From: Acetivibrio thermocellus ATCC 27405 | GTDB taxonomy: Bacteria; Bacillota; Clostridia; Acetivibrionales; Acetivibrionaceae | Direction of reading: 5' to 3' | DNA length: 24,000 bases | Assembly: GCF_000015865.1 (NCBI RefSeq) | Contig: NC_009012.1 | Location: 1,891,081 to 1,915,080 of the forward strand | In this document: one piece after another, positions 1,156 through 21,005 of the stretch | How positions within the stretch are numbered: the first letter of the stretch is position 1 | Layout of the letters: every line of letters starts with the position of its first letter | Position numbers and translations under genes: made by a program | The notes under the pieces: model-generated | Seen by the model: the letters and a program-made list of their open reading frames with translations, nothing else | Told to the model about the DNA's origin: nothing | Database searches by the model: none

Positions 1156-1184
1156 TTGACATTGTATATAGAAAAGTGTAATAT
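1156..1184 (+). promoter_or_regulatory. Sigma-A type promoter: TTGACA (1156-1161), 17-nt spacer, TAATAT (1179-1184)
   Basis: This is read directly from the sequence. The -35 hexamer is perfect, the spacer is exactly 17 nt, and the -10 hexamer matches TATAAT at 4 of 6 positions with TG just upstream. It sits about 50 nt before the GNAT start, in the only gap upstream of the nif-like block. Confidence 0.55.
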
Positions 1185-1232
1185 TTTAAAACATACTAAT
1201 CATATATGTTTAATACAAAAGGGGTGGTTTTT

Positions 1233-1772
1233 ATGGACTTACATATTAGAGAAGCGGATATATCTGACAGTGCATTGGTGCTTTCGTTTATTAAAGAACT
1301 TGCAGAATTTGAGGGGATGGGCAAAGAGGTTACAACGACTGAAGCAGAGCTTCGGGAATCCCTTTTTCAAAAAAGACAGGCAAATGTTTTAATAGCTGAA
1401 ATTGACGGTAATCCCGCAGCCTTTGCACTGTTTTATCCCGTATATTCCACCTTCTCCGGACGGCAAAACCTCTTTTTAGAAGACCTGTTTGTGAAAGAAG
1501 AATATCGAGGTAAGGGTATTGGTAAAGCACTTATGAAACAGCTTGCAAAGAAAGCTTTGCAAATGGGTGCGAAACGTCTTGACTGGTATGTACTTGAGGA
1601 CAATAAAAGCGGCTCAAGGTTTTATAAGCATCTGGGGGCAGTTCCCCTTTTAGACCGGCGTACATATCGAATGAGTGAAAAAAGTTTGGAATCTTTAGCG
1701 AACGGAGTGATGACAAATGTCAAAAATAAATTTATCCCTTCCGGAAGTACAGATAAGGGAAATTCGTATTAA
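1233..1772 (+). CDS. GNAT N-acetyltransferase, spermidine/spermine (SSAT)/thialysine acetyltransferase-like
   Basis: The motifs 'IREADISD..LSFIKELAEFEGM', 'LFLEDLFVKEEYRGKGIGKALM' and 'SRFYKHLGA' follow the SSAT-family pattern (IKELAxYE, YLEDFFV..YRGxGIG, FYKxxGA). The start is placed at ATG 1233 after 'AAGGGGTGG'. The 3' end overlaps the next gene by 56 nt. Confidence 0.85.
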   Translation: MDLHIREADISDSALVLSFIKELAEFEGMGKEVTTTEAELRESLFQKRQANVLIAEIDGNPAAFALFYPVYSTFSGRQNLFLEDLFVKEEYRGKGIGKALMKQLAKKALQMGAKRLDWYVLEDNKSGSRFYKHLGAVPLLDRRTYRMSEKSLESLANGVMTNVKNKFIPSGSTDKGNSY

Positions 1773-3192
1773 TTCAATAACGGGTTATCAGGGAGATGCT
1801 AAGGAACTGGTAGAAGCCCGCGAATTCGGTCTGAAGGATAAAGAACGTTCCTTTAGCCAATGCCTGGGCTGTGCTACCTCAAAAGCGGCCTGTATGACTG
1901 TGTTAATTCAGGACGCTGCAGTCATCAGCCATGGACCGGTGGGCTGTGCTTCCTGTCTGCATGAATTTGCCTTTACCTATCGGGTGAATTATCCTTTGCG
2001 CGGTATTGAACGTCCCACACCACGCCGTATCTTTTCCACCAATCTAAAGGAAAAGGATACAGTTTACGGAGGAAATATAAAGCTTGCCAATACCATTCGA
2101 GAGGTATATGAGAGAACGCATGCCAACGCTATTTTTGTATTGACCACATGCGCTGCCGGAATTATCGGCGATGATGTGGAAAGCGTTTGCAACGAAGCCG
2201 AGGAAGAGTTGGGAATACCGGTGGTAGCCATCTTTTGCGAAGGTTTTCGTTCCAAAGTATGGACCACAGGTTTTGACGCTGCTTACCACGGCATTGCACG
2301 CAAGCTGATTCAAAAACCCCGGAGGCGGCGGGATGACATGATCAATGTAATCAATTTCTGGGGCAGCGATGTGTTTTACGAATGGTTTGCTCCCTTTGGA
2401 GCAAAACCCAATTACATAATCCCTTTTTCTACAGTGAACGGATTAAAATATGCCAGCGAGGCCGCTGCCACCGTCCAGGCTTGCTCCACGCTGGGAAGCT
2501 ACCTGGGAGCAGTGCTGGAACAGGATTTTGGTGTTCCCGAAATTCCTGCCGCCCCACCCTACGGTATTGCACAAACGGATAGATGGTTCAGGGCGTTGGG
2601 AAAGATCCTCGGCAAAGAAGAAATTGCTGAAAAAATCATTGCGGAAAAAAAGAAAGAGTATCTGCCCAAAATTGAAGCTCTACGGGAAAAATTGGCCGGA
2701 AAAACGGCTTATGTAACAGCAGGTGCTGCCCATGGCCATGCGTTGCTGGATGTGCTGGGAGAGCTTGGCATTAAAGCAGTCGGTGCAGCGATTTTCCATC
2801 ACGACCCCATCTATGACAGCGGACGTGAGGAAAACGACCAACTGGCTCAGCGCGTAGCCGATTATGGAAATGTTTTTAACTACAATGTTTGCAACAAGCA
2901 GGAGTTTGAGCTGGTCAATGCCTTAAACCGCCTCCGTCCCGATGTATTGCTGGCCCGGCATGGCGGCATGACTCTCTGGGGAGCAAAACTGGGCATTCCG
3001 TCACTTTTAATTGGCGATGAACATTACTCCATGGGTTATGAAGGTCTGGTCAATTACGGTGAGCGTATTTTAGAAGTTATTGAAAACGATGAATTTGTAA
3101 AAAACCTCGAAAAGCATGCCATCAATCCATACACCAAATGGTGGCTTGAGCAGCCGCCGTATTATTTCCTGAAAGGAGGTACCGGTAAATGA
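1717..3192 (+). CDS. Nitrogenase-like component 1 alpha subunit (NifD/NifE family; MarD/NflD-like)
   Basis: 491 aa. 'LGC(52)ATSK', 'SHGPVGC(77)' and 'LTTC(145)AAGIIGDD' match the three alpha P-cluster cysteine motifs. 'CEGFR' is identical to NifD. 'VQAC(256)STLGSY..FGVP' aligns by eye residue-for-residue with NifD 'VHC(275)YRSMNY..YGIP'. There is a GGAG RBS, and a 4-nt ATGA overlap with the next gene. Confidence 0.9.
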   Translation: MSKINLSLPEVQIREIRINSITGYQGDAKELVEAREFGLKDKERSFSQCLGCATSKAACMTVLIQDAAVISHGPVGCASCLHEFAFTYRVNYPLRGIERPTPRRIFSTNLKEKDTVYGGNIKLANTIREVYERTHANAIFVLTTCAAGIIGDDVESVCNEAEEELGIPVVAIFCEGFRSKVWTTGFDAAYHGIARKLIQKPRRRRDDMINVINFWGSDVFYEWFAPFGAKPNYIIPFSTVNGLKYASEAAATVQACSTLGSYLGAVLEQDFGVPEIPAAPPYGIAQTDRWFRALGKILGKEEIAEKIIAEKKKEYLPKIEALREKLAGKTAYVTAGAAHGHALLDVLGELGIKAVGAAIFHHDPIYDSGREENDQLAQRVADYGNVFNYNVCNKQEFELVNALNRLRPDVLLARHGGMTLWGAKLGIPSLLIGDEHYSMGYEGLVNYGERILEVIENDEFVKNLEKHAINPYTKWWLEQPPYYFLKGGTGK

Positions 3193-4532
3193 GTAGATCC
3201 GGATTGATTGAACAAGAACGTTTTACCTGTGCAATCGGTGCTTTGCAAACCGTGGTGGCTATTCCGCGGGCCGTGCCGATTCTTCATTCCGGTCCCGGCT
3301 GCGGCGAGATGATTGCCGGATTTTTTGAACGGTCAACGGGATACGCCGGCGGTTCCACATCTCCCTGCACAAACTTTACAGAAAAAGAAGTTGTGTTTGG
3401 CGGAATCAACCGGCTGAGGGATATTATAGAAAACACCTACAAAGTATTGGATACGGATTTGCAGGTGGTTCTGACCGGCTGCACCGCCGGTATTGTCGGA
3501 GACGATGTGGACAGCCTTGTTTCTGAATTTGCCCAAAAGGGTAAGCCGATTGTATCCGTGGAAACTGCAGGATTTAAGGCCACCAACTTTGAAGCTCACA
3601 GCCTTGTGGTTAATGCCATTATAGATCAATATGTAAGCCGGTTTGAAGATGAGAATAAGCCAAAATCGCAAAAAAACACAGTGAATCTTATAGCCTCCAT
3701 TCCGTATCAGGATCCGTTTTGGAAGGGTAATCTGGCCGAATACAAGCGTCTGCTTGCCGGTATTGGGCTTAAAGCCAATGTTTTATTCGGACCCCAGTCG
3801 GGAGGTGTAAAAGAGTGGCAGTCCATACCGACAGCACTTTTCAATATTTTAGTTTCCCCATGGTACGGAAAACCCATTGCGGATCACCTCAAATCCAAAT
3901 ACGGGCAGGAATATACATGGTTTCATCACATTCCCATAGGTGCCAATCAAACCGAGGCGTTCCTTAATCAAGTTGTGGAATTTGCCATCGAACAAGGAGC
4001 AGATATTGACAAAGAATCAGCCCAGGAGTTTATCCGTCACGAGTCCCATGCCTACTATGAGGAGATTGATAACCTTGCCACCTTCCTTTTGGAGTTTCGC
4101 TACGGTCTTCCCAACCATGCCCATATCCTTCATGACGCGGGATATGTCGTCGCACTGTCTAAGTTTTTGCTGCACGAGGTGGGAATTGTACCAAAGGAAC
4201 AATTTATTACCGATGCTACACCGGAAAAATTCCATGAAGCCATTCGCGCCGATTTGAAAAGCACCAGCGATAAAAAGGAAATTCCGCTTTATTTTGAGCC
4301 CGATGCGGGAAAGGCGCAGGAGATTCTTAGGGGAATCCATCATAAAGGAAGGGGTCTTATCATCGGTTCAGGATGGGATAAGGAACTGGCAAAAGAAAAA
4401 GGCTATGATTTCCTTTCAGCTGCTTTACCTTCTCCCTACCGGTTGGTCTTGACAACCAATTACGCAGGATTTACAGGAGGGCTTCGGGTTATAGAGGACA
4501 TCTACCAGACGGTTCTTTCAACCTATGCATAA
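3189..4532 (+). CDS. Nitrogenase-like component 1 beta subunit (NifK/NifN family; MarK/NflK-like)
   Basis: 447 aa. 'FTC(14)AIGA', 'LHSGPGC(38)' and 'LTGC(98)TAGIVGDD' match the three beta P-cluster cysteine motifs of NifK; NifN keeps only one of them. The gene is translationally coupled to the alpha gene. Confidence 0.9.
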   Translation: MSRSGLIEQERFTCAIGALQTVVAIPRAVPILHSGPGCGEMIAGFFERSTGYAGGSTSPCTNFTEKEVVFGGINRLRDIIENTYKVLDTDLQVVLTGCTAGIVGDDVDSLVSEFAQKGKPIVSVETAGFKATNFEAHSLVVNAIIDQYVSRFEDENKPKSQKNTVNLIASIPYQDPFWKGNLAEYKRLLAGIGLKANVLFGPQSGGVKEWQSIPTALFNILVSPWYGKPIADHLKSKYGQEYTWFHHIPIGANQTEAFLNQVVEFAIEQGADIDKESAQEFIRHESHAYYEEIDNLATFLLEFRYGLPNHAHILHDAGYVVALSKFLLHEVGIVPKEQFITDATPEKFHEAIRADLKSTSDKKEIPLYFEPDAGKAQEILRGIHHKGRGLIIGSGWDKELAKEKGYDFLSAALPSPYRLVLTTNYAGFTGGLRVIEDIYQTVLSTYA

Positions 4533-4545
4533 GGAGGGCGACCGT

Positions 4546-4881
4546 ATGAGTTACCGTATTGGATTTGCCAGTATTGACGGCACTGTTATTGATCAACACT
4601 TTGGCTCGGCCAGATACTGGCAGATATATGATGTGGATAAAGAGGCGCGTTTTGTGGAGACCCGAAAAACGGCCGCCAAATGTCAGGGTCATTGCGAAGG
4701 CGGATTTGACCATCTTCTTTCAGTGTTGGAGGACTGTGATGCAATATTTGTTTTGAAAATAGGTCAGGCTGCGGCAGCTGTTATGATAGCCAAAGGCAAA
4801 AGAGTCTTTGAAGCAACCGGTGAAGTGGAAGAGATCCTTGCCCAACTGGTCGGTGGCCGCTTGCATGAAGAAGGCGGTTAA
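4546..4881 (+). CDS. NifX/NafY/NifB-C-terminal type dinitrogenase FeMo-cofactor-binding domain protein
   Basis: About 111 aa. 'RIGFASIDGTVIDQHFGSARYWQIYDV' is the hallmark N-terminus of the Nitro_FeMo-Co domain. ATG 4546 follows AAGGAGG; the ORF-track start 4525 has no RBS. Confidence 0.85.
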   Translation: MSYRIGFASIDGTVIDQHFGSARYWQIYDVDKEARFVETRKTAAKCQGHCEGGFDHLLSVLEDCDAIFVLKIGQAAAAVMIAKGKRVFEATGEVEEILAQLVGGRLHEEGG

Positions 4882-4893
4882 GGAGGAAGTTTT

Positions 4894-5769
4894 ATGGCAT
4901 TTACATATGAAGATCTGAAAAAAAATCATCCCTGTTTTGCGGCGGGAGCTAAAAACAATAAGGGTCGTGTTCATTTGCCGGTATCTTACGGGTGCAATAT
5001 TGCCTGCAATTTTTGCAAGCGTGACATCAACGATACGGATAACCGTCCCGGGGTTGCAAGCGGAATAATCACACCACAGGAAGCTGTAGATGCAGTGAGA
5101 AGAGCGGTGGAACTTTGCCCCGATATTACTGTAGCGGGAGTGGCCGGACCGGGTGATACCCTGGCAACACCTTATGCACTGCAGACCTTTCGCCTTATCA
5201 AGCAGGAATTCCCTCATATTATAAAATGCATGAGCACCAACGGCCTTCTTCTGCCGGAATACGCTGATGAGATTATTGATGTGGGCATTGACAGCCTGAC
5301 TGTTACCGTCAATGCAGTTGACCCGGAAATACAGGCACAGATTTGCGAGGGTATTGTCTATCATGGTAAGCGCTATACAGGAATTGAAGCCGCAAAAATT
5401 CTTATTCAAAATCAACTTGCCGGAATTAAGAAAGTATCCCAATCAGGAATAACCATAAAAGTAAATACAGTGTTAATCCCGGAGATCAACGCGGATCATG
5501 TGGTGGAAGTGGCAAAGACTGTTGCACAGCACGGAGCAAAAATCTATAACATTATTCCGCTGATTCCCCAGCACAAGCTTAGCTGGTGCAGCACACCGGG
5601 ATGTGATCTCATCAGCAAAGTGAGGTCAGAAGCCCAGGCCTATATCAATGTATTCCGGCATTGCCAGCGTTGTAGAGCAGATGCTGCCGGAATTCCAGGC
5701 GGTAAGGATATATCCTCAAGTTTATATATTAGGCCTGTAAAATTGGAAAATACCTTTTCCCATGGCTAA
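4894..5769 (+). CDS. nifB: NifB-type radical SAM enzyme (nitrogenase cofactor core/NifB-co synthase homolog; MarB-like)
   Basis: The motifs 'HPCF', 'GRVHLPVSYGCNIACNFC..RPGV' (CxxxCxxC), 'CMSTNG' and the C-terminal 'RHCQRCRADAAG' reproduce the NifB SAM-cluster and auxiliary K-cluster ligand motifs. There is no fused NifX domain. A strong RBS (TAAGGAGG) precedes the start. Confidence 0.88.
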   Translation: MAFTYEDLKKNHPCFAAGAKNNKGRVHLPVSYGCNIACNFCKRDINDTDNRPGVASGIITPQEAVDAVRRAVELCPDITVAGVAGPGDTLATPYALQTFRLIKQEFPHIIKCMSTNGLLLPEYADEIIDVGIDSLTVTVNAVDPEIQAQICEGIVYHGKRYTGIEAAKILIQNQLAGIKKVSQSGITIKVNTVLIPEINADHVVEVAKTVAQHGAKIYNIIPLIPQHKLSWCSTPGCDLISKVRSEAQAYINVFRHCQRCRADAAGIPGGKDISSSLYIRPVKLENTFSHG

Positions 5770-5839
5770 AAGTTGCGCAATTGAAAGCTTAAGAGTTTGT
5801 TAATGATATTGCCCTATATATTGTGCAGGTTGAAAGTAA

Positions 5840-5886
5840 ACATGATTGAAAACAGATGAACAGAGAGAAGTTTACATGATTGAAAA
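5840..5886. repeat. Perfect 13-nt direct repeat ACATGATTGAAAA (5840-5852 and 5874-5886)
   Basis: This is read directly from the sequence. The two copies start 34 nt apart, inside the only large gap (271 nt) of the nif-like block. Related TTGAAA cores also occur at 5781 and 5830. Confidence 0.6.
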
Positions 5887-5966
5887 AAATAAAAAATTGG
5901 CAGCAGCAAGTGTAACTTGATGAAATAAAGCTGTATATTTATCAATCCTTTAGGAGGTGGTTTGAT

Positions 5967-6056
5967 ATGTGTAGTGACTGTGACATGACGGAAATGCCCC
6001 GATGTATACTTTCAAATTTATTTATAGGAGGAGATTTAACATGGCAAACGAATTAG
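5967..6056 (+). CDS. Candidate 29-aa Cys/Met-rich leader peptide (MCSDCDMTEMPRCILSNLFIGGDLTWQTN) overlapping the metY start
   Basis: The ATG lies 9 nt after GGAGG (5953-5957). Six of the first 13 codons are Cys or Met. The ORF reads across the metY Shine-Dalgarno (about 6027-6032) and the metY ATG (6041) and stops at 6054-6056. It is too short to appear in the ORF track, so this is hypothetical. Confidence 0.3.
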   Translation: MCSDCDMTEMPRCILSNLFIGGDLTWQTN

Positions 6057-7357
6057 AAAAAACTGCATATCGGTTTGATACTCAAAGACTGCGGGCAGGC
6101 TATGATCCAAAGGAGCATAACTATGCCGTATCGCCGCCCATTTATCAGACCACTTCCTTTGACTTTCGCGATGTAGAGCATGCAAAAGCTTTATTTGGAC
6201 TTCGCGAATTGGGAAACCTTTATACCCGCATTGGAAATCCTACGGTTGCTGTACTGGAGCAACGGGTAGCGGCCCTTGACGGAGCCAGCGGTGCAGTGGC
6301 ACTGGCTTCCGGCATGGCAGCTATCAGTTATACTCTGCTCAATGTTGCAGAGGGCGGAGGTCGTATTTTGACTTCTCCCTATCTCTATGGCGGCAGTGCG
6401 GACAGTTTTAAAAAAGTTTATCCTAAATTTGGTATAACCTTCGATTTTGCTAAAAATATAGAAAATCCTGAAAAGCTTTCGGAAGAAATTAAGCCCGATA
6501 CCAAAGCAATCTATGTGGAAAGCATCAGCAATCCCAATGCCGCTCTTTTGGACATTGATGCGATTGCGAAAGTCGCCCATGAACATGGCATACCTCTGAT
6601 TGTAGACAATACAGTTGCAACGCCGTACTTGTATAACCCTATTTCCCATGGGGCCGACATTGTGGTCTACTCTGCGACCAAAGGATTGACGGGACACGGA
6701 AACGTTATTGCCGGACTGGTGCTGGAAAGCGGTAAATTCAACTGGCAGAGCGATAAATTCCCTCAGTTTTCGGAAAAGTATTATACCCTGCGGGACATTA
6801 ACGATAACTACCGCAGTTTTCTTGAAGTATTTCCGGAGGCTCCGTTTACCGGCAGGATACGCTTTAACTATCTCAACTACTTTGGAGCGGCATTATCGCC
6901 TTTTGATGCCTACCTTGTTTTAATCGGATTGGAAACCCTGTCTGAGCGCGTTGAAAAACAAGTGCGTAATGCCAGTATCCTGGCGGAATACCTAAAATCC
7001 CACAAGTCGGTGGAATGGGTTCGTTACCCCGGTTTGAAGGATAGCCCCTATTATGAGCTGGCACAAAGGGATTTCCCAAAAGGAGCGGGAGGAATCCTGT
7101 CATTCGGTTTCAAAGGGACAACGGCTCAAAGGGAAACTTTCTTGAACTCAGTGAAACTCTTTCATTATCATGTCAATATTGGGGATGCCCGCAGCCTGAT
7201 TGTAAATTCTCCGCAAACCACCCATAGTGAACTGGAGCCTGATGAGAAAAAATTTGCCGATATTCCGGAAAACTTAATTCGCATATCGGCAGGACTGGAA
7301 GATCCGGCAGATTTAATAGCTGATTTGGAACAGGCGTTTGAAAAGGCATATATATAA
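6041..7357 (+). CDS. metY: O-acetylhomoserine (thiol)-lyase / O-acetylhomoserine sulfhydrylase, PLP-dependent
   Basis: The sequence shows the Cys/Met-metabolism PLP enzyme pattern: 'YTRIGNPT', 'ESISNP', 'DNTVATPYL' and 'YSATKGLTGHG' (PLP lysine), with a length of about 438 aa. ATG 6041 follows AGGAGG; the ORF-track start 6002 adds 13 residues with no RBS. Confidence 0.9.
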   Translation: MANELEKTAYRFDTQRLRAGYDPKEHNYAVSPPIYQTTSFDFRDVEHAKALFGLRELGNLYTRIGNPTVAVLEQRVAALDGASGAVALASGMAAISYTLLNVAEGGGRILTSPYLYGGSADSFKKVYPKFGITFDFAKNIENPEKLSEEIKPDTKAIYVESISNPNAALLDIDAIAKVAHEHGIPLIVDNTVATPYLYNPISHGADIVVYSATKGLTGHGNVIAGLVLESGKFNWQSDKFPQFSEKYYTLRDINDNYRSFLEVFPEAPFTGRIRFNYLNYFGAALSPFDAYLVLIGLETLSERVEKQVRNASILAEYLKSHKSVEWVRYPGLKDSPYYELAQRDFPKGAGGILSFGFKGTTAQRETFLNSVKLFHYHVNIGDARSLIVNSPQTTHSELEPDEKKFADIPENLIRISAGLEDPADLIADLEQAFEKAYI

Positions 7358-7381
7358 TTTCGTAAAGGGGTGTGTTTTATC

Positions 7382-8443
7382 ATGAAAGGTTTTATAAAAT
7401 TGATCAGTGCAGTCGCTCTGTTTTCCATTTTTATAGGCTTGTTTTCCGGATGTGGCAGGACGAATACGGGAGGTACCCAGGACAACGGGAAAACGGGGAC
7501 ATCTTCAGCAGAATACAAATACGGAAAAATTGATATTCCCGGTAAAGACGGTTCACTTTGCGGTGCACCTATCTATATTGCATATGAAAAGGGCTTTTTC
7601 AAGCAAGAGGGCTTTGATGTCAACCTTATATCGGCAGATACCGAAACCCGTAAAATCGGTTTGAACAACGGTACCATCCCGATTGTCAACGGGGACTTTC
7701 AGTTCTTTCCCTCTATTGAAAACAATGTGAAGGTAAAGGTGGTGGACGGTCTCCACTATGGATGCATAAAACTGATTGTTCCGAAGGATTCACCGATTCA
7801 AGGAGTTCAAGACCTTAGGGGAAAAAAGATCAGCGTTGATGAAATAGGCGGCACTCCCCATCAGGTAGCATCGGTGTGGCTGGAGAAAAACGGAATTTCC
7901 GCAAAGCAGGAGGACGGAGAAGTTACGTTCCTTCCCTTCTCCGACGGAAATCTGGCAGTGGAAGCCCTGAGAAAAGGAGAGGTTGATGTTGCGGCACTGT
8001 GGGATCCCTTCGGCTCTGTTCAGGAAAAAACGGGAAATTACCGTGTAATTCTTGATATTTCCAAGGATGAACCTTTTGCCGGAAAATACTGCTGTTTCCT
8101 TTATGCTTCGGAAAAGCTGCTTGACGAAAAACCAGAACAGGTTGCCGCATTGCTGCGTGCATATAGGGCAGCCCAAAACTGGATTTCGGAAAACCCGGAA
8201 GAAGCCGTCGACATTATAATAAATGGTAAATACGCGCAGATTGAAGACAGAGAATTAGCCATTAAGCTTATCAAGAGCTATCAATACCCTTCTTATGCCG
8301 AACGGGAAAAAAATAAAACACAGGTTCGAGACAATGTTTACTATTTTGCCGAACAATTGAACCAAATTGGATATTTAAAGACGGATCCTGATACTTTCAC
8401 AAAGAATGCTTATGTCGAGGTCGACATCAACCTGGGTTTATAA
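7382..8443 (+). CDS. ABC transporter substrate-binding lipoprotein, NitT/TauT (SsuA/TauA/NMT1-like) family
   Basis: The signal peptide carries the lipobox 'LFSGC'. The periplasmic-binding fold resembles sulfonate/taurine/nitrate binding proteins ('GAPIYIAYEKGFFKQEGFDV', 'AALWDPF'). SsuC-like and SsuB-like genes follow. Confidence 0.85.
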   Translation: MKGFIKLISAVALFSIFIGLFSGCGRTNTGGTQDNGKTGTSSAEYKYGKIDIPGKDGSLCGAPIYIAYEKGFFKQEGFDVNLISADTETRKIGLNNGTIPIVNGDFQFFPSIENNVKVKVVDGLHYGCIKLIVPKDSPIQGVQDLRGKKISVDEIGGTPHQVASVWLEKNGISAKQEDGEVTFLPFSDGNLAVEALRKGEVDVAALWDPFGSVQEKTGNYRVILDISKDEPFAGKYCCFLYASEKLLDEKPEQVAALLRAYRAAQNWISENPEEAVDIIINGKYAQIEDRELAIKLIKSYQYPSYAEREKNKTQVRDNVYYFAEQLNQIGYLKTDPDTFTKNAYVEVDINLGL

Positions 8444-8458
8444 TATTTCCAAAGATTG

Positions 8459-8493
8459 TTTCCGCCCGGTGAACCGGAGGAACCGGGCGGAAA
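8459..8493 (+). promoter_or_regulatory. GC-rich intra-operon hairpin (11-bp perfect stem TTTCCGCCCGG / CCGGGCGGAAA, 13-nt loop)
   Basis: This is read directly from the sequence. It lies between the binding-protein stop and the permease RBS. No U-run follows, so it is more likely an mRNA-stabilising or decoupling element than a full terminator. Confidence 0.5.
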
Positions 8494-8523
8494 TAATAAA
8501 CACCCCACAGGAGGTATTCTGCT

Positions 8524-9591
8524 ATGTACGATTTAGTAAAACTACAAAGCCCAACATCCTCGGAATTAAAAGTAAAGCAACAATATGGAAAACTAAAAAC
8601 GGTTTCGGCCCAAAATTGGAGTACTAATTTTGTACTGACACTGGCAGGGTTTGCTGTAGCCATAGCAGCCAATATTCTGGTGAAGCAAGTGGCAAATGTG
8701 GAAATCAAAACTTATTTTGTTGCAGGAATTCCCTTCACATTTAATTTGCTTTACCGATTGGTCCTGGTAGTAATTATTTTGATTTATGCCGGTATGGGAA
8801 TATTTTCATATTTTGATCCTGTGCGAAGAGAAAAATTTTCCAGGCAGGCTCCCTTTCGTTTCGCTATGGGTCTGGCTATTACAGCTTGGGATATATTAGG
8901 AACAAAGCTTCTTTTATTACCGCAGCCGTTTTTCCCGGGACCGGCAAAAATTCTTGAATCCTTTTTGATTGAAGGAGATTTTATTTTACAAAATACCCTT
9001 TACTCCATTAAACTTTTTTTGGCCGGATTTACTCTGGGTGTGGTGTTTGGGGTGGGTACGGGAATTTTAATCGGTTGGTTTCCAAAGGTATATTATTGGG
9101 TATATCCAATATTAAAGATTACCGGTGTCATTCCTGCCGTAGCGTGGATGCCCTTTGCACTGACGCTTTTCCCGTCTCCGTTTTCAGCAGCTGTTTTTCT
9201 TATTGTAATATGCGCATGGTTTTCCATTGCGGCTCTTACAGCCCAGGGCATACAATCCACCCCAAAGTATCAGTTCGAAGTAGCTCGCACCCTGGGGGCA
9301 AAAACGCCATTTTTAATATTCCATGTTGCAGTGCCTCAGGCCATGCCCCAGATTTTTACCGGTATTTCCAATGCCAATGGTTTTGCTTTTACAACTTTGG
9401 TAATGGCAGAGATGATGGGCCAGCCGGGAGGATTGGGTTACTACATAAATTTAAGCAAGGTGTGGTCTGCCTACTATAAGGTATTTGCCTCCATTCTCGT
9501 TATGGCCCTGCTGTTCAGTCTAATTATGAAAATACTGGGGCTAATACAGGCGAATGTACTCCGGTGGCAGAAAGGATGGGTTAAGGAATGA
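8524..9591 (+). CDS. ABC transporter permease, NitT/TauT (SsuC/TauC-like) family, with an N-terminal extension of about 95 aa
   Basis: The core is a BPD_transp_1-type domain ('FEVARTLGAKTPFLIFHVAVPQAMPQIF' is the EAA-loop region). The N-terminal extension carries two extra hydrophobic helices. An AGGAGG RBS is present. Confidence 0.85.
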   Translation: MYDLVKLQSPTSSELKVKQQYGKLKTVSAQNWSTNFVLTLAGFAVAIAANILVKQVANVEIKTYFVAGIPFTFNLLYRLVLVVIILIYAGMGIFSYFDPVRREKFSRQAPFRFAMGLAITAWDILGTKLLLLPQPFFPGPAKILESFLIEGDFILQNTLYSIKLFLAGFTLGVVFGVGTGILIGWFPKVYYWVYPILKITGVIPAVAWMPFALTLFPSPFSAAVFLIVICAWFSIAALTAQGIQSTPKYQFEVARTLGAKTPFLIFHVAVPQAMPQIFTGISNANGFAFTTLVMAEMMGQPGGLGYYINLSKVWSAYYKVFASILVMALLFSLIMKILGLIQANVLRWQKGWVKE

Positions 9592-10391
9592 GCAAAAACT
9601 TATCGGTAATCAGTGATATTATTTTACATATAGAAAATGTAAATTACACTTATTATGACGACGCCGGAAACCATGTTGAGGTACTTCGGGATATCAATTT
9701 GTCCGTCCGCCGGGGAGAATTCCTTTCCATCATAGGTTCCTCCGGTTGCGGAAAGACGACGCTCTTACGGCTTATAGCAGGTCTTGACAAGCCGGAAACA
9801 GGAACCCTGATTCTTAACGGAGAGCAAATCTCCGGACCAGATCCAGAGCGGGGCTACGTTTTTCAGCATGGAGGTCTTTTTCAATGGCTGACTGTTGAGA
9901 AAAATATCGCAACCGGACTTAAGGCACGCCATGTTTATAGGGAGAATAAACACCGTATTGCCCATTATATAGACCTGATTGGACTTAAGGGGTTTGAAAA
10001 ATGTTACCCGCATCAGTTAAGCGGAGGTATGGCTCAGAGAGTTGCTATTGCCAGGGCATTGATCAATAATCCAAAGGTACTGCTTCTTGATGAACCCATG
10101 AGTGCCTTAGATTCCTTTACCCGTTCCGATATTCAGGATAAATTGCTTGAGCTTCATAAAGAAAATAAAACGACAATGATTCTGGTAACCCACGATGTGG
10201 ACGAAGCAATCTATCTTTCCGACCGTATTGTGGTTATGACTCCGCGGCCCGGAAAAATCAGTGAGATCATGGAGATTAATCTCCCACATCCTCGGCATCG
10301 TGGAGGAACCGAATTTCTTTCCCTTCGACGGAATATATTAGAAAAACTGCATCTGGCAAGTGCGCTGCCACAGCCGGAATATACCATATAG
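9588..10391 (+). CDS. ABC transporter ATP-binding protein, NitT/TauT (SsuB/TauB-like) family
   Basis: Walker A 'GSSGCGKTT', signature 'LSGGMAQR' and Walker B 'LLLDEP' are present. A 4-nt ATGA overlap joins it to the permease gene. Confidence 0.9.
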   Translation: MSKNLSVISDIILHIENVNYTYYDDAGNHVEVLRDINLSVRRGEFLSIIGSSGCGKTTLLRLIAGLDKPETGTLILNGEQISGPDPERGYVFQHGGLFQWLTVEKNIATGLKARHVYRENKHRIAHYIDLIGLKGFEKCYPHQLSGGMAQRVAIARALINNPKVLLLDEPMSALDSFTRSDIQDKLLELHKENKTTMILVTHDVDEAIYLSDRIVVMTPRPGKISEIMEINLPHPRHRGGTEFLSLRRNILEKLHLASALPQPEYTI

Positions 10392-10405
10392 ATTACGGAG
10401 GTTAG

Positions 10406-11266
<861 letters not shown>

Positions 11267-11331: not shown

Positions 11332-11376
11332 AAAAGCGATGGGGGCTCGATGCCCTCGGAGCTTTTGTTTATTTTT
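11332..11376 (+). terminator. Rho-independent terminator closing the nif-like/sulfur block
   Basis: It is a two-part stem, AAAAGC..GCTTTT enclosing GGGGGC-TCGAT-GCCCTC, followed by TTTTGTTTATTTTT. A weaker 7-bp hairpin (AGCGGTC..GACCGCT, 11271-11297) precedes it. Confidence 0.7.
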
Positions 11377-11617: not shown

Positions 11618-12361
11618 CTAATCAAACACAATCTCAGCCTTTGCCATCGGAATGGCACTTTCCATAACTATTTTAAGCGCCAGTGAAGGGTCTATGACAT
11701 CCTTCCCCTGAAGCAGTCCATCCTGTATCGCCAATCCAAATAAAACCGGCCACTCACGCGGGGAAGCGCAATACTTCTCAATACGGGGGAGGAACAACGG
11801 CCAAAAAGCCTTGACAAAATTGATCGGAACGTCTGCCGTCCGGTGTCCCTCTGGAATCCTTGGAATGCCGTAGTTCTCGGTACCGACCGTGGCAGAGACA
11901 TATTTGAAAATCTCAAGGATGTCAAAATCAATATTCACACCCATGTGCTGCACTATGCCGGCAGCCAGGGACCATACAGAATATTGATTTTCAAACAGCG
12001 GCTTGTTTATAAGGTCGCCAAAAAAGTACCTCTTGCCGTTTTTCGCCTGTATGACCGTAAACACCTGTTCTTCACTCAGTCCTCTGATCTCAACGAATTC
12101 TTTCCTCAGGCTCGCCTGGCATGAATAACCCGCAAGGGCTCCCAGTGCGCATATAAGAGTCTCAATATGTACACCTCTTGAATCCCTGACAGCATTCAAT
12201 AAAGTGTTGAAAATTTCTTTAGCACCCAGTTTGGCGCCTATCAACGGGTCTTCCTTTCTCCTCTCATTAATCTGGCGGAAAAATATATCATCTATTCTTT
12301 CGTAATCACTCCCGCTCTCAGCATTGCTTTCATTCTTTTTTTCTTTCCCATCATTCATCAT
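11618..12361 (-). CDS. Hypothetical protein (247 aa), no family recognised
   Basis: This long ORF has protein-like composition. ATG 12361 lies 6 nt after AGGAG, which I prefer to the ORF-track start 12409. The gene has its own promoter and terminator. I recognise no motif. Confidence 0.7.
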   Translation of the reverse strand: MMNDGKEKKNESNAESGSDYERIDDIFFRQINERRKEDPLIGAKLGAKEIFNTLLNAVRDSRGVHIETLICALGALAGYSCQASLRKEFVEIRGLSEEQVFTVIQAKNGKRYFFGDLINKPLFENQYSVWSLAAGIVQHMGVNIDFDILEIFKYVSATVGTENYGIPRIPEGHRTADVPINFVKAFWPLFLPRIEKYCASPREWPVLFGLAIQDGLLQGKDVIDPSLALKIVMESAIPMAKAEIVFD

Positions 12362-12619
12362 TTTCACTCCTGATATTTGAAATTGGTTTTTTGTAATCTT
12401 TTTATTCAACCAAAAAATTCCCTTTCCTGGCTATATAGCTACGAGTTTCCCGGATTAATGTTTATCAGTCTATATCTGAACTATCATCTAATTCTTTCAG
12501 TAATTCTTCAGGTGTTTTATTTCCTTCTTCAAAATCTTTTTCTATTCTTGTTATTTTCTTCTCCATTTTTTCGATAAATTCATCCTCAAATTGTATATTT
12601 TTGCATTCTTTTTTTAAAC

Positions 12620-12648: not shown

Positions 12649-13036
12649 TAAGCATATTGTTTAGCCTTTTGCAAAAATGTAATTACATTATATTACCTGT
12701 ACAATATTCACATACTATAAGTTATCATAATATCAGAGCATTTACTTTAGAAAGGCTCCGGTATTATGAGCAGAAGAAAACATGAAGCAAGTGGAAAAAT
12801 TAATTCACGTGGAGGACTTAATTAAAGCTTCATATCAGGATTGTAAAAATGCAAAACTTTATTGCAGGTCCTAAAGCTTATATAAATACATCTGTTCTTT
12901 TGCCAATAATTTCCTCAGAAGGAGGAAAATGATCCCCAGGTGCACGATACCGAATTGGCACCGGCCGCTGCGGTTGATGCCATTCGTGAACTTATTCGTG
13001 AAGATGAAACTCAATCAAAAGAAAGGAGGTGAAAAA

Positions 13037-13747
13037 ATGAGCAGAGTGCCCACTGCGCACAACGCAGCGGTGGAAGGACAAATTGCAAAAACGGTTTTGA
13101 TGCCCGGTGATCCACTTCGTGCAAAATTTATTGCCGAAACCTATCTGGAAAATGTCACTTGTTTTAATACAGTGCGCAATATGTTAGGTTTTACCGGCAC
13201 CTATCAGGGAAAGCCGGTGTCTGTTATGGGTCACGGGATGGGTATTCCCTCTATCGGTATTTATTCATACGAGCTTTTCAATTTCTACGATGTGGACAAT
13301 ATCATCCGCATAGGCTCGGCCGGTGCCTTAAGCGACGATCTGGATCTAAAAGATCTCGTTATCGCCATGGGAGCCTGCACCGACTCCAATTACGCCAACC
13401 AATACCAGCTCCCCGGAACGTTTGCACCTATTGCCAGCTACACGCTGATGCAAAAAGCCATTGAGGAAGCACAGAAAAAAGGAATCAGCGTCGCCATCGG
13501 CAATGTTCTTTCCACGGATGTGTTTTACAACGCCAATAAAGGCGCTAACGATGCCTGGAAAAGCATGGGCGTGTTGTGTATCGAAATGGAAGCGGCAGCT
13601 TTATACATGAATGCGGCCCAGGCAGGAAAAAATGCTTTGTGTATCCTGTCCATCTCCGACCACATCTACAAAGGTACAGAACTGTCGGCTCAGGAACGCC
13701 AGCTCGGTTTCAAAAATATGATTGAAGTCGCCCTTGGAATTATCTAA
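13037..13747 (+). CDS. deoD: Purine nucleoside phosphorylase, DeoD type (hexameric PNP-I family)
   Basis: Motifs 'VLMPGDPLRAKFIAE', 'GHGMGIPS', 'RIGSAGA' and 'IEMEAAALY' are present, and the length is 236 aa. ATG 13037 follows AAAGGAGG; the ORF-track start 12929 is an unsupported extension. Confidence 0.92.
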   Translation: MSRVPTAHNAAVEGQIAKTVLMPGDPLRAKFIAETYLENVTCFNTVRNMLGFTGTYQGKPVSVMGHGMGIPSIGIYSYELFNFYDVDNIIRIGSAGALSDDLDLKDLVIAMGACTDSNYANQYQLPGTFAPIASYTLMQKAIEEAQKKGISVAIGNVLSTDVFYNANKGANDAWKSMGVLCIEMEAAALYMNAAQAGKNALCILSISDHIYKGTELSAQERQLGFKNMIEVALGII

Positions 13748-13759
13748 CAAATAATTTGG

Positions 13760-13782
13760 TTTCAACATTAAATATGTTGAAA
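13760..13782. promoter_or_regulatory. Perfect 9-bp inverted repeat TTTCAACAT-TAAAT-ATGTTGAAA (candidate operator or weak hairpin)
   Basis: This is read directly from the sequence. It sits in the 82-nt gap between deoD and the BMP lipoprotein gene, and no U-run follows it. Confidence 0.35.
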
Positions 13783-13829
13783 ATGAGAAAAATAAATTAA
13801 ACAAAATATATTGAAAAGGAGATAAGAAC

Positions 13830-14897
13830 ATGAAAAAATTTCTGGCATTACTATTATCCGTTATAATAGTCTTTTCCCTGACTGCATGTGGCGGAAAAAA
13901 TTCCGGCAACAACAGCAATAACAGCAGTAATAACAACAGCAGCAACAATACCGGGGGCAAGAAGATTAAGATTGGTATGGTTACCGATGTTGGCGGTGTA
14001 AACGACGGCTCATTCAACCAGTCTGCCTGGGAAGGTCTGCAGCGCGCTCAAAAAGAACTTGGTGTAGAAGTTCGCTATGCCGAATCTGCAACCGATGCCG
14101 ACTATGCTCCCAACATTGAGGCTTTCATTGATGAAGGCTATGACCTCATCATCTGTGTAGGATACATGCTGGCTGATGCCACCAGAAAAGCAGCTGAAGC
14201 CAATCCAAATCAGAAATTTGCCATCATTGACGATGCTTCCATCGATTTGCCCAACGTTACCTGCCTGATGTTCGAGCAGAGCCAGGCTTCCTACCTGGTT
14301 GGCCTTGTTGCCGGTAAAATGACCAAAACAAACAAAGTAGGATTTGTTGTCGGTATGGTCAGCCAGACCATGAACGAATTCGGTTACGGGTATCTTGCCG
14401 GCGTGAAAGATGCCAACCCCAATGCTACTATCCTGCAGTTCAACGCTAACTCTTTCAGCAGCACCGAAACCGGTAAATCCGCTGCTACCACAATGATCAC
14501 CAACGGCGCGGATGTAATCTTCCACGCAGCTGGCGGAACGGGCTTAGGCGTAATCGAAGGCTGTAAAGACGCAGGCAAATGGGCAATCGGTGTAGACAGC
14601 GACCAGTCCCCGCTTGCTCCTGAAAACATTCTGACCTCTGCTATGAAACGCGTTGACAATGCATGCTTTGATATTGCCAAAGCCGTAAAGGAAGGCAATG
14701 TTAAGCCTGGCATCATCACGTATGACTTAAAGTCCGCAGGTGTAGACATCGCTCCTACCACCACCAACCTGCCAAAGGAAGTTCTCGATTATGTAAACCA
14801 AGCTAAGCAGGACATCATCAACGGTAAAATTACCGTTCCGAAGACCAAGGCTGAGTTTGAAGCAAAATACGGCAACATATACGAATTAGACGACTAA
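13830..14897 (+). CDS. BMP-family (PnrA/TmpC/Med-like) ABC transporter nucleoside-binding lipoprotein
   Basis: The lipobox is 'LTAC', followed by an Asn/Ser-rich linker. 'KIGMVTDVGGVNDGSFNQSAWEGL' and 'GVDSDQ' are hallmarks of the basic-membrane-protein family. Cognate ATPase and permease genes lie downstream. Confidence 0.9.
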   Translation: MKKFLALLLSVIIVFSLTACGGKNSGNNSNNSSNNNSSNNTGGKKIKIGMVTDVGGVNDGSFNQSAWEGLQRAQKELGVEVRYAESATDADYAPNIEAFIDEGYDLIICVGYMLADATRKAAEANPNQKFAIIDDASIDLPNVTCLMFEQSQASYLVGLVAGKMTKTNKVGFVVGMVSQTMNEFGYGYLAGVKDANPNATILQFNANSFSSTETGKSAATTMITNGADVIFHAAGGTGLGVIEGCKDAGKWAIGVDSDQSPLAPENILTSAMKRVDNACFDIAKAVKEGNVKPGIITYDLKSAGVDIAPTTTNLPKEVLDYVNQAKQDIINGKITVPKTKAEFEAKYGNIYELDD

Positions 14898-14951
14898 TTT
14901 TAACGATTTGAGCAAAATAACCTTGATTATCCAAGGAAGGGTGGCGAACAA

Positions 14952-16496
14952 TTGAGAGACATTTCCATGGAGCGCGTGAATGAAACGCGCAAGAAAATAC
15001 TGGATATCATCAAAAGCCCGATACTAACTCACGAGCAAAAGGTTGCTTCACTGACCAATACTGCCGATTCTCTGCTGGAAGTATTGGATTTGCCGCAGGG
15101 GCTGGACGAGCTGATGAATGTCCCGGCAGACAGAAAATGCATCTGCGACCTGAATGAGGGACACGCTCCGCTTCGTCCCCGATATATCATTCCCGACTAT
15201 GCCAAATTCATGAAGGAAGGCAGCCGGTTTCTGCAGCTTGCGCCACCGACCGACTTATATGAAGCGCTTAATTCTCTGCTGATTTTCTACAAGCATGTTC
15301 CAAGCGTAACCAACTTCCCGGTATATCTGGGACAGTTGGATACGCTGCTGGAACCTTTTATGCAAGACGTTGACGACACTACGGCCAAAAAACTTCTGCG
15401 AGGCTTTTTGGTGCACGTGGACCGTACTATTCTTGACTCCTTCTCCCATGCAAATATCGGTCCCAAGCCCACACGGACCGGCCGCTTGCTGCTTGAGGTG
15501 GAGGCAGAGCTTACGCAGGCCGTTCCCAATCTGACCTTAAAATACGAAGAAGGCGTAACCGATGACGACTTCGCCATTCAGGCTGTCAAGACAGCCCTGC
15601 GTTCGGCCAAGCCCAGCTTTGCCAACCACCGCATGTTTACGCAGGAACTTGGTGAGAATTATGTCATTGCCAGCTGCTATAACGGATTGCCGCTGGGCGG
15701 CGGATCATACACCCTTTGCCGCCTGATTTTGGGCAACATTGCAAAACGCGCGGGCGGAATTGAAGATTTCAGGACCAACCAGCTGCCCTATGTTATGGAC
15801 ATCATGGCACGTTACATGGACTCCCGTATCCGCTTTGAAGTCGAAGAAAGCGGCTTCTTTGAAAATAACTTCCTGGCCAGGGAAGGCTTTATCAGCCGCA
15901 AACGCTTCACTGCCATGTTTGGCCTGGTGGGTCTGGCGGAATGTGTAAATATCCTGCTGGAAAAAGAGGGCCGTCCCGGCCGCTTTGGCCACGATGAGTA
16001 CGCTACCGAGCTTGGTGAATCCATCATCAAGCAGATATATGAATTCAGTGAGAAACACCATAACCCCTACTGCGAAATAACCGGCGGTCATTTTCTGCTT
16101 CATGCGCAAGTAGGAATTTCAGAAGATCAAAATATCTCGCCGGGTACCCGTATCCCCATAGGAGAGGAACCCGACGAAATGATTGATCACCTCATGGTTG
16201 TCAATCATTTCCATAAATATTTTCCATCCGGAACGGGCGACATTTTCCCTATTGATGTTACTGTTCACCAAAATCCCGAATACGTGCTGGACATCGTCAA
16301 AGGCTCCTTCCGCAAGGAATTGCGCTATCTGTCCTTCTATGAGAAGAACAGCGATGTTATCCGTATCACGGGCTACCTGGTCAAACGGTCGGAAATCGAA
16401 AAGCTGAAAAGCGGTCAGAATGTGCTGCAGGACACCACCGCTTTGGGAATGGGCGCCGTCATGAATGGAAAGATTTTGGATAGAAAGGTGCGCTGA
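14952..16496 (+). CDS. yjjI: YjjI-family glycyl-radical enzyme homolog (short GRE of about 510 aa; function unknown)
   Basis: About 514 aa. A C-terminal glycyl-radical-type motif 'VIRITGYLV' matches the RVxG[FWY] pattern. A candidate Cys loop is 'VIASCYNG'. A GRE activase gene follows immediately. The start is TTG 14952, 7-8 nt after GGAAGGGTGG; ATG 14967 is the alternative. Confidence 0.8.
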   Translation: MRDISMERVNETRKKILDIIKSPILTHEQKVASLTNTADSLLEVLDLPQGLDELMNVPADRKCICDLNEGHAPLRPRYIIPDYAKFMKEGSRFLQLAPPTDLYEALNSLLIFYKHVPSVTNFPVYLGQLDTLLEPFMQDVDDTTAKKLLRGFLVHVDRTILDSFSHANIGPKPTRTGRLLLEVEAELTQAVPNLTLKYEEGVTDDDFAIQAVKTALRSAKPSFANHRMFTQELGENYVIASCYNGLPLGGGSYTLCRLILGNIAKRAGGIEDFRTNQLPYVMDIMARYMDSRIRFEVEESGFFENNFLAREGFISRKRFTAMFGLVGLAECVNILLEKEGRPGRFGHDEYATELGESIIKQIYEFSEKHHNPYCEITGGHFLLHAQVGISEDQNISPGTRIPIGEEPDEMIDHLMVVNHFHKYFPSGTGDIFPIDVTVHQNPEYVLDIVKGSFRKELRYLSFYEKNSDVIRITGYLVKRSEIEKLKSGQNVLQDTTALGMGAVMNGKILDRKVR

Positions 16497-16498
16497 TT

Positions 16499-17341
16499 AT
16501 GGTGGCCACTGTCAACAAAATCATACCTTTCAGCACCGTTGACGGGCCTGGCAACCGTACCGCTATCTTTTTACAGGGCTGCAATATGAACTGTTTGTAT
16601 TGCCATAATCCTGAAACAAGATGCAAATGTATGCACTGTGGGGCATGTGTCAACTCATGCCCCACAGGGGCATTAAGCTTCGAAGATGAAAAAGTTCGTT
16701 ACAACTGTGCCAAATGCGTCCATTGTGACAGCTGCATCAAGGCATGCCCTCATGACAGCAGCCCCAAAACCGTTGATATGACACCGGAACAGGTTTGGCG
16801 AAAGGTGGAAAAGCAAATCCCATTTATCCGCGGTATCACCGTTTCCGGCGGAGAATGCACACTTTACCCGGAGTTTCTGACAGAGCTGTTTATTCTGGCA
16901 CAGGCTCATGGCCTGTCCACCCTGATTGACTCCAATGGAACCCTCGATTTTGAACACTATCCTGATTTGCTGGCCGTTACCGACGGCGTAATGCTTGACA
17001 TAAAAGCATTTGACTGTGAAGAACACAAGCGGGTGACCGGATGGAGCAACCAGGTTGTATTGAAAAATGCACGTTTTCTTGCATCAAAGGGTAAGCTGTT
17101 TGAGGTTCGTACAGTAGTTTCACCAGGCCTTTTCGATGCAGAACAAACCATTACACAAACCAGCGACATGCTCAGTAGCTACTTACCCATTCGCCCCATC
17201 CGATATAAGCTTATATCCTATCGTCCGATGGGGGTTCGCCCGCAATATAAGGAGACTTTGCAAATTCCGACACGTAATCAAATGGAATATTACGCCGGGC
17301 TGCTTGCAGCCAAAGGCTTTAAAGATATTATTATCATTTAA
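16499..17341 (+). CDS. yjjW: YjjW-family glycyl-radical enzyme activating enzyme (radical SAM)
   Basis: 'STVDGPGNRTAIFLQGCNMNCLYCHNPE' is the PflA-type activase N-terminus. A ferredoxin-like insert carries 'CMHCGACVNSCP' and 'CVHCDSCIKACP'. The gene starts 2 nt after the yjjI-like stop. Confidence 0.85.
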   Translation: MVATVNKIIPFSTVDGPGNRTAIFLQGCNMNCLYCHNPETRCKCMHCGACVNSCPTGALSFEDEKVRYNCAKCVHCDSCIKACPHDSSPKTVDMTPEQVWRKVEKQIPFIRGITVSGGECTLYPEFLTELFILAQAHGLSTLIDSNGTLDFEHYPDLLAVTDGVMLDIKAFDCEEHKRVTGWSNQVVLKNARFLASKGKLFEVRTVVSPGLFDAEQTITQTSDMLSSYLPIRPIRYKLISYRPMGVRPQYKETLQIPTRNQMEYYAGLLAAKGFKDIIII

Positions 17342-17402
17342 ATTACAAGCAAATACACTACACAATTCCCGCAAGCCAACATATAAGGAGGGAAAAACGG
17401 AC

Positions 17403-20058: not shown

Positions 20059-20994
20059 ATGGAAGAACTGATTAAAAATCTCGGCTTGGTTATTAACGCC
20101 ACACTGATAGCTACACCTCCTTTGCTTTATGCTGCATTGGGCTCCACTTTTTCGGAACGCAGTGGCGTCGTTAACATTGGTATTGAAGGTATGATGACCA
20201 TCGGTGCTTTTGTAGGCGCGGCAGTGGCTCATTTCACCGGCAATGCCTGGCTGGCCTTTTTATGCGGAGGACTGGTTGGAGCTCTCTTCGGACTGATTCA
20301 TGCCATAGCCTGCGTTTCTTTCGGCGCAGACCAGACCATTTCCGGTACTGCCATAAACTTTTTGGCACCCGGCGTAGCTATCTTCGTATGCAAAGCACTG
20401 TTTGAACAATCCTCAAACACTCCTCCGCTGGACACAGCTCAAAAGCTGCCCAAGCTGTTCAACGGTGTTTTCGAGGTGGGAAGTTTCTGGAATAATGTTC
20501 TTAACACCTACGTTGCTACTTATCTGGCTTTTGTGGCAGTGGCTATCGTATGGTTTATCTTCTACAAGACCAGATTCGGCATGCGTCTTCGTGCCGTAGG
20601 TGAGCATCCCAAGGCTTGTGAAACTCAAGGTATCAATGTATTCCGCATCCGCTACATTGCCGTGATTGCTTCCGGCTTTTTCGCAGGTCTTGGTGGTGCT
20701 TATGTTACCCTGTGCACTGTCAGCCAGTTCCGTCCGGAAGTTATTGTCGGCCAGGGCTTTATCGCCATCGCCGCTGTTATCTTCGGTAAATTCACCCCTC
20801 ACGGAGCCATGGGTGCCTGCCTGCTGTTCGGATTGTGCAACGGCTTAAAGGTTCTTTTGGGTTCAGGCAATGTAATATCGCCCAACCTGATTTCCATGAT
20901 TCCTTACGTTGTAACAATCATTACGCTGGTACTGTTTGTCGGTAAATCCCGCGTACCTGCCGCCAGCGGCAAACCGTATTTAAAACAGAAGTAA
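20059..20994 (+). CDS. ABC transporter permease (BMP/nucleoside system, NupC/YufQ-like)
   Basis: This is the second BPD_transp_2 permease ('NIGIEGMM', 'GINVFRIRY'). Its ATG directly abuts the upstream TAA stop, and an AAGGAGG RBS is present. Confidence 0.88.
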   Translation: MEELIKNLGLVINATLIATPPLLYAALGSTFSERSGVVNIGIEGMMTIGAFVGAAVAHFTGNAWLAFLCGGLVGALFGLIHAIACVSFGADQTISGTAINFLAPGVAIFVCKALFEQSSNTPPLDTAQKLPKLFNGVFEVGSFWNNVLNTYVATYLAFVAVAIVWFIFYKTRFGMRLRAVGEHPKACETQGINVFRIRYIAVIASGFFAGLGGAYVTLCTVSQFRPEVIVGQGFIAIAAVIFGKFTPHGAMGACLLFGLCNGLKVLLGSGNVISPNLISMIPYVVTIITLVLFVGKSRVPAASGKPYLKQK

Positions 20995-21005
20995 ATGGGG
21001 CAGTC

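Follow-up and report, generated by a model that had tools for sequence, protein, structure and literature searches.

A nitrogenase-like protein pair in a sulfur-gene operon of Acetivibrio thermocellus is probably the catalytic component of a Group IV-A reductase

Is a nitrogenase-like protein pair encoded among sulfur genes in a thermophilic bacterium an enzyme in its own right, and, if so, what does it reduce? The question is raised by a stretch of 24,000 nucleotides from Acetivibrio thermocellus ATCC 27405 (NC_009012.1, positions 1,891,081 to 1,915,080; hereafter the window, to which all coordinates refer), in which two adjacent genes, here called D and K, encode relatives of the nitrogenase subunits NifD and NifK. 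In papers on Clostridium thermocellum the region is numbered from Cthe_1565 (nitrogenase homologue) to Cthe_1573 (nifH), or as Clo1313_2331, Clo1313_2332, and Clo1313_2339, which is consistent with the gene order seen here. A preliminary description, made from the letters of the sequence, had proposed that the pair is catalytic rather than scaffold-like. Our analysis supports the view that D/K is a catalytic pair with a P-type [8Fe-7S] cluster and a cysteine-anchored complex cofactor, rather than a NifEN scaffold or a [4Fe-4S] enzyme of the DPOR or CfbD kind. We infer this cluster content from the structure of Rhodospirillum rubrum methylthio-alkane reductase (MAR), which is 42% identical.

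Such proteins belong to Group IV of the nitrogenase superfamily, the divisions of which include IV-A (Nfa, described in Endomicrobium proavitum and Heliophilum fasciatum and linked to N2 fixation), IV-B (CfbD), IV-C (MAR), and IV-F (isethionate reductase), with IV-D and IV-E having no assigned function. Retention of the P-cluster and cofactor ligands in Group IV is already published, structurally for MAR and as a prediction for Group IV-A.

Both proteins match the nitrogenase component family (PF00148, Oxidored_nitro; cut-off 28.6 bits), D with an E value of 7e-93 (312 bits) and K with one of 7e-62 (210 bits). Among solved structures, the best matches of D are two R. rubrum MAR chains, 9FMG_A and 9D9U_A (E = 5e-130, 437 bits), the next match reaching 135 bits, and the best match of K is a MarK chain (E = 1e-113). 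Cys52, Cys77, Cys145, and Cys256 of D align with MarD Cys66, Cys91, Cys158, and Cys270, and Cys14, Cys38, and Cys98 of K align with MarK Cys32, Cys56, and Cys121. In the cryo-electron microscopy structure of MAR, those residues are metal-cluster ligands, MarD Cys270 being the cysteine that binds an [Fe8S9C] cluster and the other six those that hold the P-cluster, and the MarD cysteines have been equated with Azotobacter vinelandii NifD Cys62, Cys88, Cys154, and Cys275 (PMC12552129). When D is aligned with a true NifD (9P1X_A), Cys77, Cys145, and Cys256 fall on its motifs HGPIGC, TCPVGLIGDD, and LLCHRS.

Conservation was assessed in homologues of D and K drawn from 78 related loci, among which 72 D and 69 K sequences are orthologues. 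The four D cysteines are invariant in 72/72 and the three K cysteines in 69/69; together, the ligand match and this invariance lie far beyond chance. The motifs and residue numbers that had been quoted for D (GCATSK at Cys52, HGPVGC at Cys77, TTCAAGIIGDD at Cys145, VQACSTLGSY at Cys256, and CEGFR at residues 174-178) and for the three K cysteines proved exact, and the proposed six P-cluster cysteines and Cys275 equivalent correspond one-to-one to the MarDK ligands.

The histidine ligand of the cofactor, which the preliminary description could not place, is found at His415 in the motif LLARHGG. It aligns with MarD His429, and the preceding Arg414 aligns with MarD Arg428; both residues are invariant in all 72 D orthologues. 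The loop from which MarD His429 binds Fe8 of the cofactor is peculiar to Group IV (PMC12552129). The histidine of the C-terminal motif GDEHYSMGYEG, His436, lies on a different loop, the one that holds NifD His442, and aligns with MarD His450. Substitutions of Cys270 or His429 inactivate MAR, and mutation of His450 is without effect (PMC13474568). One earlier assignment fell: the histidine of AAYHGIA is not the counterpart of NifD His195, because in the 9P1X_A alignment that position is occupied by Phe186 and the histidine in question, His191, lies five residues farther on. The position of NifD Gln191 is taken by Trp182, in agreement with MarD, where Trp195 and Phe199 stand for NifD Gln191 and His195 (PMC12552129), and that of NifD Val70 by Cys59-Met60. 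The pair thus has all six P-cluster cysteines and the full set of cofactor ligands of the Cys270/Arg428/His429 type. P-cluster and cofactor ligands are common to nearly all Group IV clades, so this set does not discriminate MarDK from the others.

Structural superposition, which had been suggested as a check, points the same way. The AlphaFold2 model of D (mean predicted local distance difference test score, 90.9; predicted template modeling [TM] score, 0.90) superposes on 9FMG_A with TM scores of 0.93 and 0.97, a root-mean-square deviation of 1.3 Å, and 42% identity, as against TM scores of about 0.7 at about 20% identity for NifD chains and 0.68 for NifE.

NifD and NifE cannot be told apart by cysteines on the D side, but they can by the K side and by the genome. 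NifN retains one of the cluster cysteines, and K keeps all three. A genome-wide profile search found D and K to be the only PF00148 genes in the 3.84-Mb genome, which has a single NifB-like gene and a single true NifH-family gene, both in the D/K operon. With no other PF00148 gene present, a scaffold would have no client enzyme, and the products of the sole NifB-like gene and of the NifX-like gene, which lie directly downstream of K, can only serve D/K. The catalytic reading of the preliminary description is borne out by these features together with the MarD-like fold.

To place the pair within Group IV, we built two trees, a quick one of 117 sequences and a careful one of 50, from the locus sequences and the 94 full-length proteins among 150 matches listed from a representative library of 1.84 billion proteins. 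In both trees, window D falls in a clade with 100/100 support, sister to a clade with 95/97 support that contains P0125, the representative closest to R. rubrum MarD among the matches listed (616 bits to 9FMG_A, versus 437 for window D). Group IV-A is the label that a preprint on methyltransferase clusters of clostridia applies to the Mar-like genes in such organisms, H. thermocellum among them. For E. proavitum, a 2026 review gives NfaD Cys53, Cys78, and Cys146, nearby Cys50, Cys60, and Cys81, and cofactor Cys257, with Cys13, Cys37, and Cys97 in NfaK. Window D has this whole NfaD set with a shift of one residue (Cys49, Cys52, Cys59, Cys77, Cys80, Cys145, and Cys256), and the K cysteines (14/38/98) keep the NfaK spacing of 24 and 60 residues, as do all 69 K orthologues. 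A spacing of 24/65 or 25/65, as in MarK, is seen in every one of the eight K sequences of lower identity that these loci provide, including two that lie just beyond the core clade. Compared with E. proavitum via the published numbering, the D/K pair would thus be of Group IV-A (Nfa type), sister to the MAR clade. Searches with D brought up no Endomicrobium proteins among the matches listed, and none occurred among ten cluster representatives that were looked up. An orthologue of MarDK (Group IV-C) was our first reading; it was dropped on account of the 42% identity, the sister position in the trees, and cysteine signatures equal to those of NfaDK.

Several genomes carry a window-type copy beside copies 39%-43% identical to it (Pectinatus L077, L069, Treponema L049/L052/L084). 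Single loci may hold two or three D/K pairs from different Group IV clades, as in L077 (Pectinatus frisingensis), L079 (Clostridium algifaecis), L069, L025, and L049/L052/L084, and their presence side by side argues that the subfamilies are not functionally redundant. Within the genus, D is 97% identical in A. straminisolvens, A. clariflavus, and a metagenome-assembled genome of Acetivibrio sp., unusually high for separate species, which points either to strong constraint or to the operon having recently been transferred within the genus.

The window's clade is further marked by residues around both metal sites, some of which are absent from the preliminary description. Three extra cysteines of D (Cys49, Cys59, and Cys80) occur together in this clade only, among five clades compared; Cys49 and Cys80 each make a CxxC pair with a P-cluster ligand (Cys52 and Cys77, respectively). 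Cys80 is present in 71/72 orthologues and in 1/9 paralogues. At the Cys49 and Cys80 positions, Gly, Ser, Gln, Arg, or Ile is found in R. rubrum-type sequences, and two of the extra cysteines stand where MarD has Gly63 and Gly94. The 2026 review flagged the nearby cysteines of NfaD as possibly altering cluster coordination in E. proavitum. K differs from MarK in having its own Cys60, 22 residues past the second P-cluster cysteine, and in having five residues fewer from the second to the third cluster cysteine. Cys60 is invariant in 69/69 orthologues; R. rubrum MarK has Ser in its place, and six of the eight K sequences of lower identity have Ser or Thr. The seventh cysteine of MarK, Cys52, is replaced by Ser34 in K (Ser in 66/69 orthologues, Ala in 3/69); its equivalent occurs in two K sequences with Mar-type D partners (L077 and L069, spacing 24/65) and in one further K. 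In the cofactor pocket, MarD His194 and Gln74 correspond to Val181 and Met60 of D. All 72 orthologues have Val, Ile, or Met at position 181, and 56/72 have Met at position 60, so that this hydrophobic pair is a possible determinant of substrate specificity.

The D and K genes belong to a series of ten closely spaced genes on the forward strand (Table 1), within which the start codon of K overlaps the stop codon of D (ATGA).

Table 1. Features of the window, with codon coordinates of the residues discussed in the text
Feature	Coordinates	Strand	Remarks
D P-cluster cysteines	Cys52 1870-1872; Cys77 1945-1947; Cys145 2149-2151	+
D cofactor residues	Cys256 2482-2484; Arg414-His415 2956-2961	+
K P-cluster cysteines	Cys14 3228-3230; Cys38 3300-3302; Cys98 3480-3482	+
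Extra D cysteines	Cys49 1861-1863; Cys59 1891-1893; Cys80 1954-1956	+
Extra K cysteine	Cys60 3366-3368	+
D pocket residues	Met60 1894-1896; Val181 2257-2259	+
Ten-gene series	1206-11266	+	closely spaced
Promoter-like site TTGACA-17-TAATAT	1156-1185	+	before operon; consensus match only
GNAT acetyltransferase	1206-1772	+	operon gene 1; 56-nucleotide overlap with D gene
GNAT/D overlap	1717-1772	+	56 nucleotides, different reading frames
D, NflD/NfaD-like alpha subunit (P0001)	1717-3192	+	491 amino acids; PF00148
K, NflK/NfaK-like beta subunit (P0002)	3189-4532	+	447 amino acids; PF00148
NifX-like cofactor-carrier protein	4525-4881	+	PF02579; gene apart from NifB-like gene
Truncated NifB-like radical-SAM protein	4894-5769	+	covers nifB model positions 9-279
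O-acetylhomoserine sulfhydrylase, MetY type	6002-7357	+
ATP-binding cassette (ABC) importer	7370-10391	+	SsuA/NMT1-family binding protein, permease, ATPase
NifH-like Fe protein	10412-11266	+	final operon gene, 5.9 kb from D/K
Terminator-like hairpin	11340-11358	+	after NifH-like gene; consensus match only
Terminator-like hairpin of 263-amino-acid open reading frame	11597-11577	-
263-amino-acid open reading frame	11618-12409	-	zero Pfam matches
Promoter-like site of 263-amino-acid open reading frame	12648-12620	-	strong, 11/12 positions
Nucleoside block	12929-22217		DeoD-type phosphorylase, Bmp-family binding protein, ABC transporter
YjjI-like glycyl-radical enzyme and its activase	14952-17341		inside nucleoside block

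Much of this arrangement recurs elsewhere. Among 47 orthologous loci in which 9.5 kb or more of sequence lies downstream of D, a NifB-like gene was found in 43, a NifH-family gene in 43, a NifX-like gene in 41, MetY in 26, and an SsuA-type binding protein in 22. The NifH-like protein of the window scores 460 bits against C. pasteurianum NifH (1CP2) and 299 against R. rubrum MarH. Fe proteins of this NifH-like type occur in 39 of the 47 loci with enough flank, and a few loci (L045, L063, and L064) instead encode, upstream of D, an Fe protein that is more distant. Expression work has reported that Cthe_1565 is co-regulated with a cysteine synthase homologue just upstream and that urea-utilisation genes fall in the same cluster (PMC3478167). 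We read both the recurrence of this arrangement and the co-regulation as favoring a role in sulfur metabolism.

We consider it probable that D/K forms the catalytic heterotetramer of a Group IV-A nitrogenase-like reductase within a sulfur-salvage operon. If the structure of MAR is taken as a guide, the D/K interface would house a P-type [8Fe-7S] cluster, held by D Cys52, Cys77, and Cys145 and K Cys14, Cys38, and Cys98, and an L-cluster-type [Fe8S9C] cofactor would sit inside D, with Cys256 at one end, His415 at the other, and Arg414 touching a belt sulfide. Gene content suggests that this cofactor may be built by the NifB-like radical-SAM (S-adenosylmethionine) protein and passed on by the NifX-like protein without a NifEN step, and that electrons would come from the NifH-like ATPase, the product of the operon's last gene. 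The least certain step, to which the gene context points, is a reductive cleavage of an organosulfur compound that the operon's importer would bring into the cell. The thiol or sulfide released might then be turned into methionine or homocysteine by the O-acetylhomoserine sulfhydrylase, and reduction of N2 or acetylene, if any, would be a side activity.

Several points weigh against this proposal. With no purified Group IV-A enzyme available, the identity of the clusters depends on a homologue that is 42% identical, and the extra cysteines (D Cys49, Cys59, and Cys80; K Cys60) could give a coordination unlike that of the canonical P-cluster. The assignment to Group IV-A is itself indirect, E. 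proavitum NfaDK having been compared through its published cysteine numbering. About 20 of the 47 orthologous loci lack both MetY and the importer, and the only physiological evidence on Group IV-A organisms (E. proavitum and Heliophilum fasciatum) indicates N2 fixation rather than sulfur metabolism. In R. rubrum, Group IV-A systems showed little or no activity on 2-(methylthio)ethanol (MT-EtOH), ethyl methyl sulfide (EMS), or dimethyl sulfide (DMS), with the exception of Clostridium magnum on DMS. Systems with NifH-like (Group I) reductases were also weak in R. rubrum, for unrelated reasons, and the Fe protein of the window is of that type.

If D/K were instead a true MAR of Group IV-C, it would convert DMS, EMS, or MT-EtOH to methanethiol and methane, ethane, or ethylene, and MetY would use the methanethiol. 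MarD and MarK are the best structural matches, the ligand set is the same, and Trp182, Phe186, and His361 surround the cofactor as Trp195, Phe199, and His375 do in MarD. MetY lies in the operon, Clostridia are reported to have working MAR systems in which nflX is split and marB truncated, and R. rubrum MAR likewise needs a NifB homologue but not NifEN and has a sulfur and methionine gene context. We nevertheless hold a MAR to be unlikely here. The window pair lies in the sister clade, outside that of the R. rubrum-type representative, and the two kinds occur side by side in single genomes (L077, L069, and L049/L052/L084), which makes redundancy improbable. K has the Nfa spacing rather than that of MarK and lacks the MarK Cys52 equivalent, the pocket residues His194 and Gln74 are replaced, and Group IV-A systems stayed under the MAR threshold in R. 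rubrum. A dedicated importer would also be unexpected for volatiles that diffuse freely, and suggests a non-volatile substrate.

A working alternative nitrogenase that fixes N2, as reported for E. proavitum, seems to us quite improbable, although the resemblance to NfaDK (Group IV-A; Zheng et al. 2016; PMC13474568) is close. The two share the D cysteine pattern, the K cysteine spacing, and the Arg-His cofactor ligands of Group IV, and both have NifB-like and Fe-protein genes in the cluster and no NifEN. E. proavitum, having only this kind of enzyme, incorporates 15N2, and acetylene reduction by C. thermocellum was reported in 1986 (cited in PMC8209448). The genome encodes no other nitrogenase-family enzyme, so D/K would be the likely source of that activity. 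The Fe protein is also near-canonical, whereas E. proavitum NfaH is reported to be 41% identical to A. vinelandii NifH. With Mo-nitrogenase NifDK (A. vinelandii, C. pasteurianum), the pair has in common the superfamily, the positions of the P-cluster cysteines and of Cys275, the CEGFR motif, and a NifH-type partner. It differs, apart from its distance in identity and fold, in that the histidine ligand is on another loop, the genome is without NifEN, and residues that NifD needs for N2 reduction (Val70, Gln191, and His195) are replaced by Cys59-Met60, Trp182, and Phe186. The operon, unlike that of E. proavitum, is centered on MetY and the importer; the neighbors of D/K are sulfur genes, and the window holds no nitrogen-regulation or ammonium genes. 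The Nfa system of E. proavitum is reported to be repressed by ammonium and to sustain N2 fixation, and the 1986 acetylene reduction was not repressed by ammonium (cited in PMC8209448). MAR reduces acetylene yet not N2, so that this activity is compatible with an enzyme other than a nitrogenase, and a review doubts that N2 fixation is the primary function of Nfa (PMC13474568).

Least credible of all is that D/K serves as a NifEN-like assembly scaffold, or as a DPOR/CfbD-like enzyme with a bridging [4Fe-4S] cluster only: the NCBIfam nifE model scores level with a NifD subfamily model (171 bits each) and the region around GDEH had been described as NifE-like, but every nif-family score falls far under its curated cut-off (nifE, 171 versus 505 bits; nifN, 40 versus 327; nifD, 139 versus 654; nifK, 82 versus 427), and the invariant K cysteines, the fold of D, the conserved buried cofactor site anchored by Cys and His, and the lack of any other D/K-type protein to receive a cofactor all argue otherwise.

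The sulfur-salvage proposal can be carried a step further, to a tentative and rather doubtful extension: Group IV-A enzymes in general would be primarily sulfur-salvage reductases for imported organosulfur compounds, the window enzyme would account for the ammonium-insensitive acetylene reduction of 1986, and the four extra D and K cysteines, next to the P-cluster ligands, would lend the electron-transfer cluster a type of coordination, or a redox-linked ligand exchange, unseen in nitrogenase or MAR. The pair adds a member to an already described group, for which it is contested whether N2 fixation or something else is the function. Its host is a thermophilic and genetically tractable model organism with no other nitrogenase-family enzyme, and a strain deleted for the NifH-like gene, AG2078, exists (PMC5887222); a tractable host, a single system, and this strain make the disputed function directly testable there.

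The first gene of the operon, encoding the GNAT acetyltransferase, has a counterpart of at least 40% identity next to D in 5 of the 47 orthologous loci whose flank is long enough, and its product is 96% identical in both Acetivibrio loci. A scan of the whole window matched zero Rfam families, neither a riboswitch nor a T-box being found, so no RNA element in the window links the operon to methionine or SAM. Beyond the operon, the opposite strand carries an open reading frame of 263 amino acids with its own promoter-like site and terminator-like hairpin, and a block of nucleoside genes follows, with a YjjI-like glycyl-radical enzyme and its activase inside it (Table 1).

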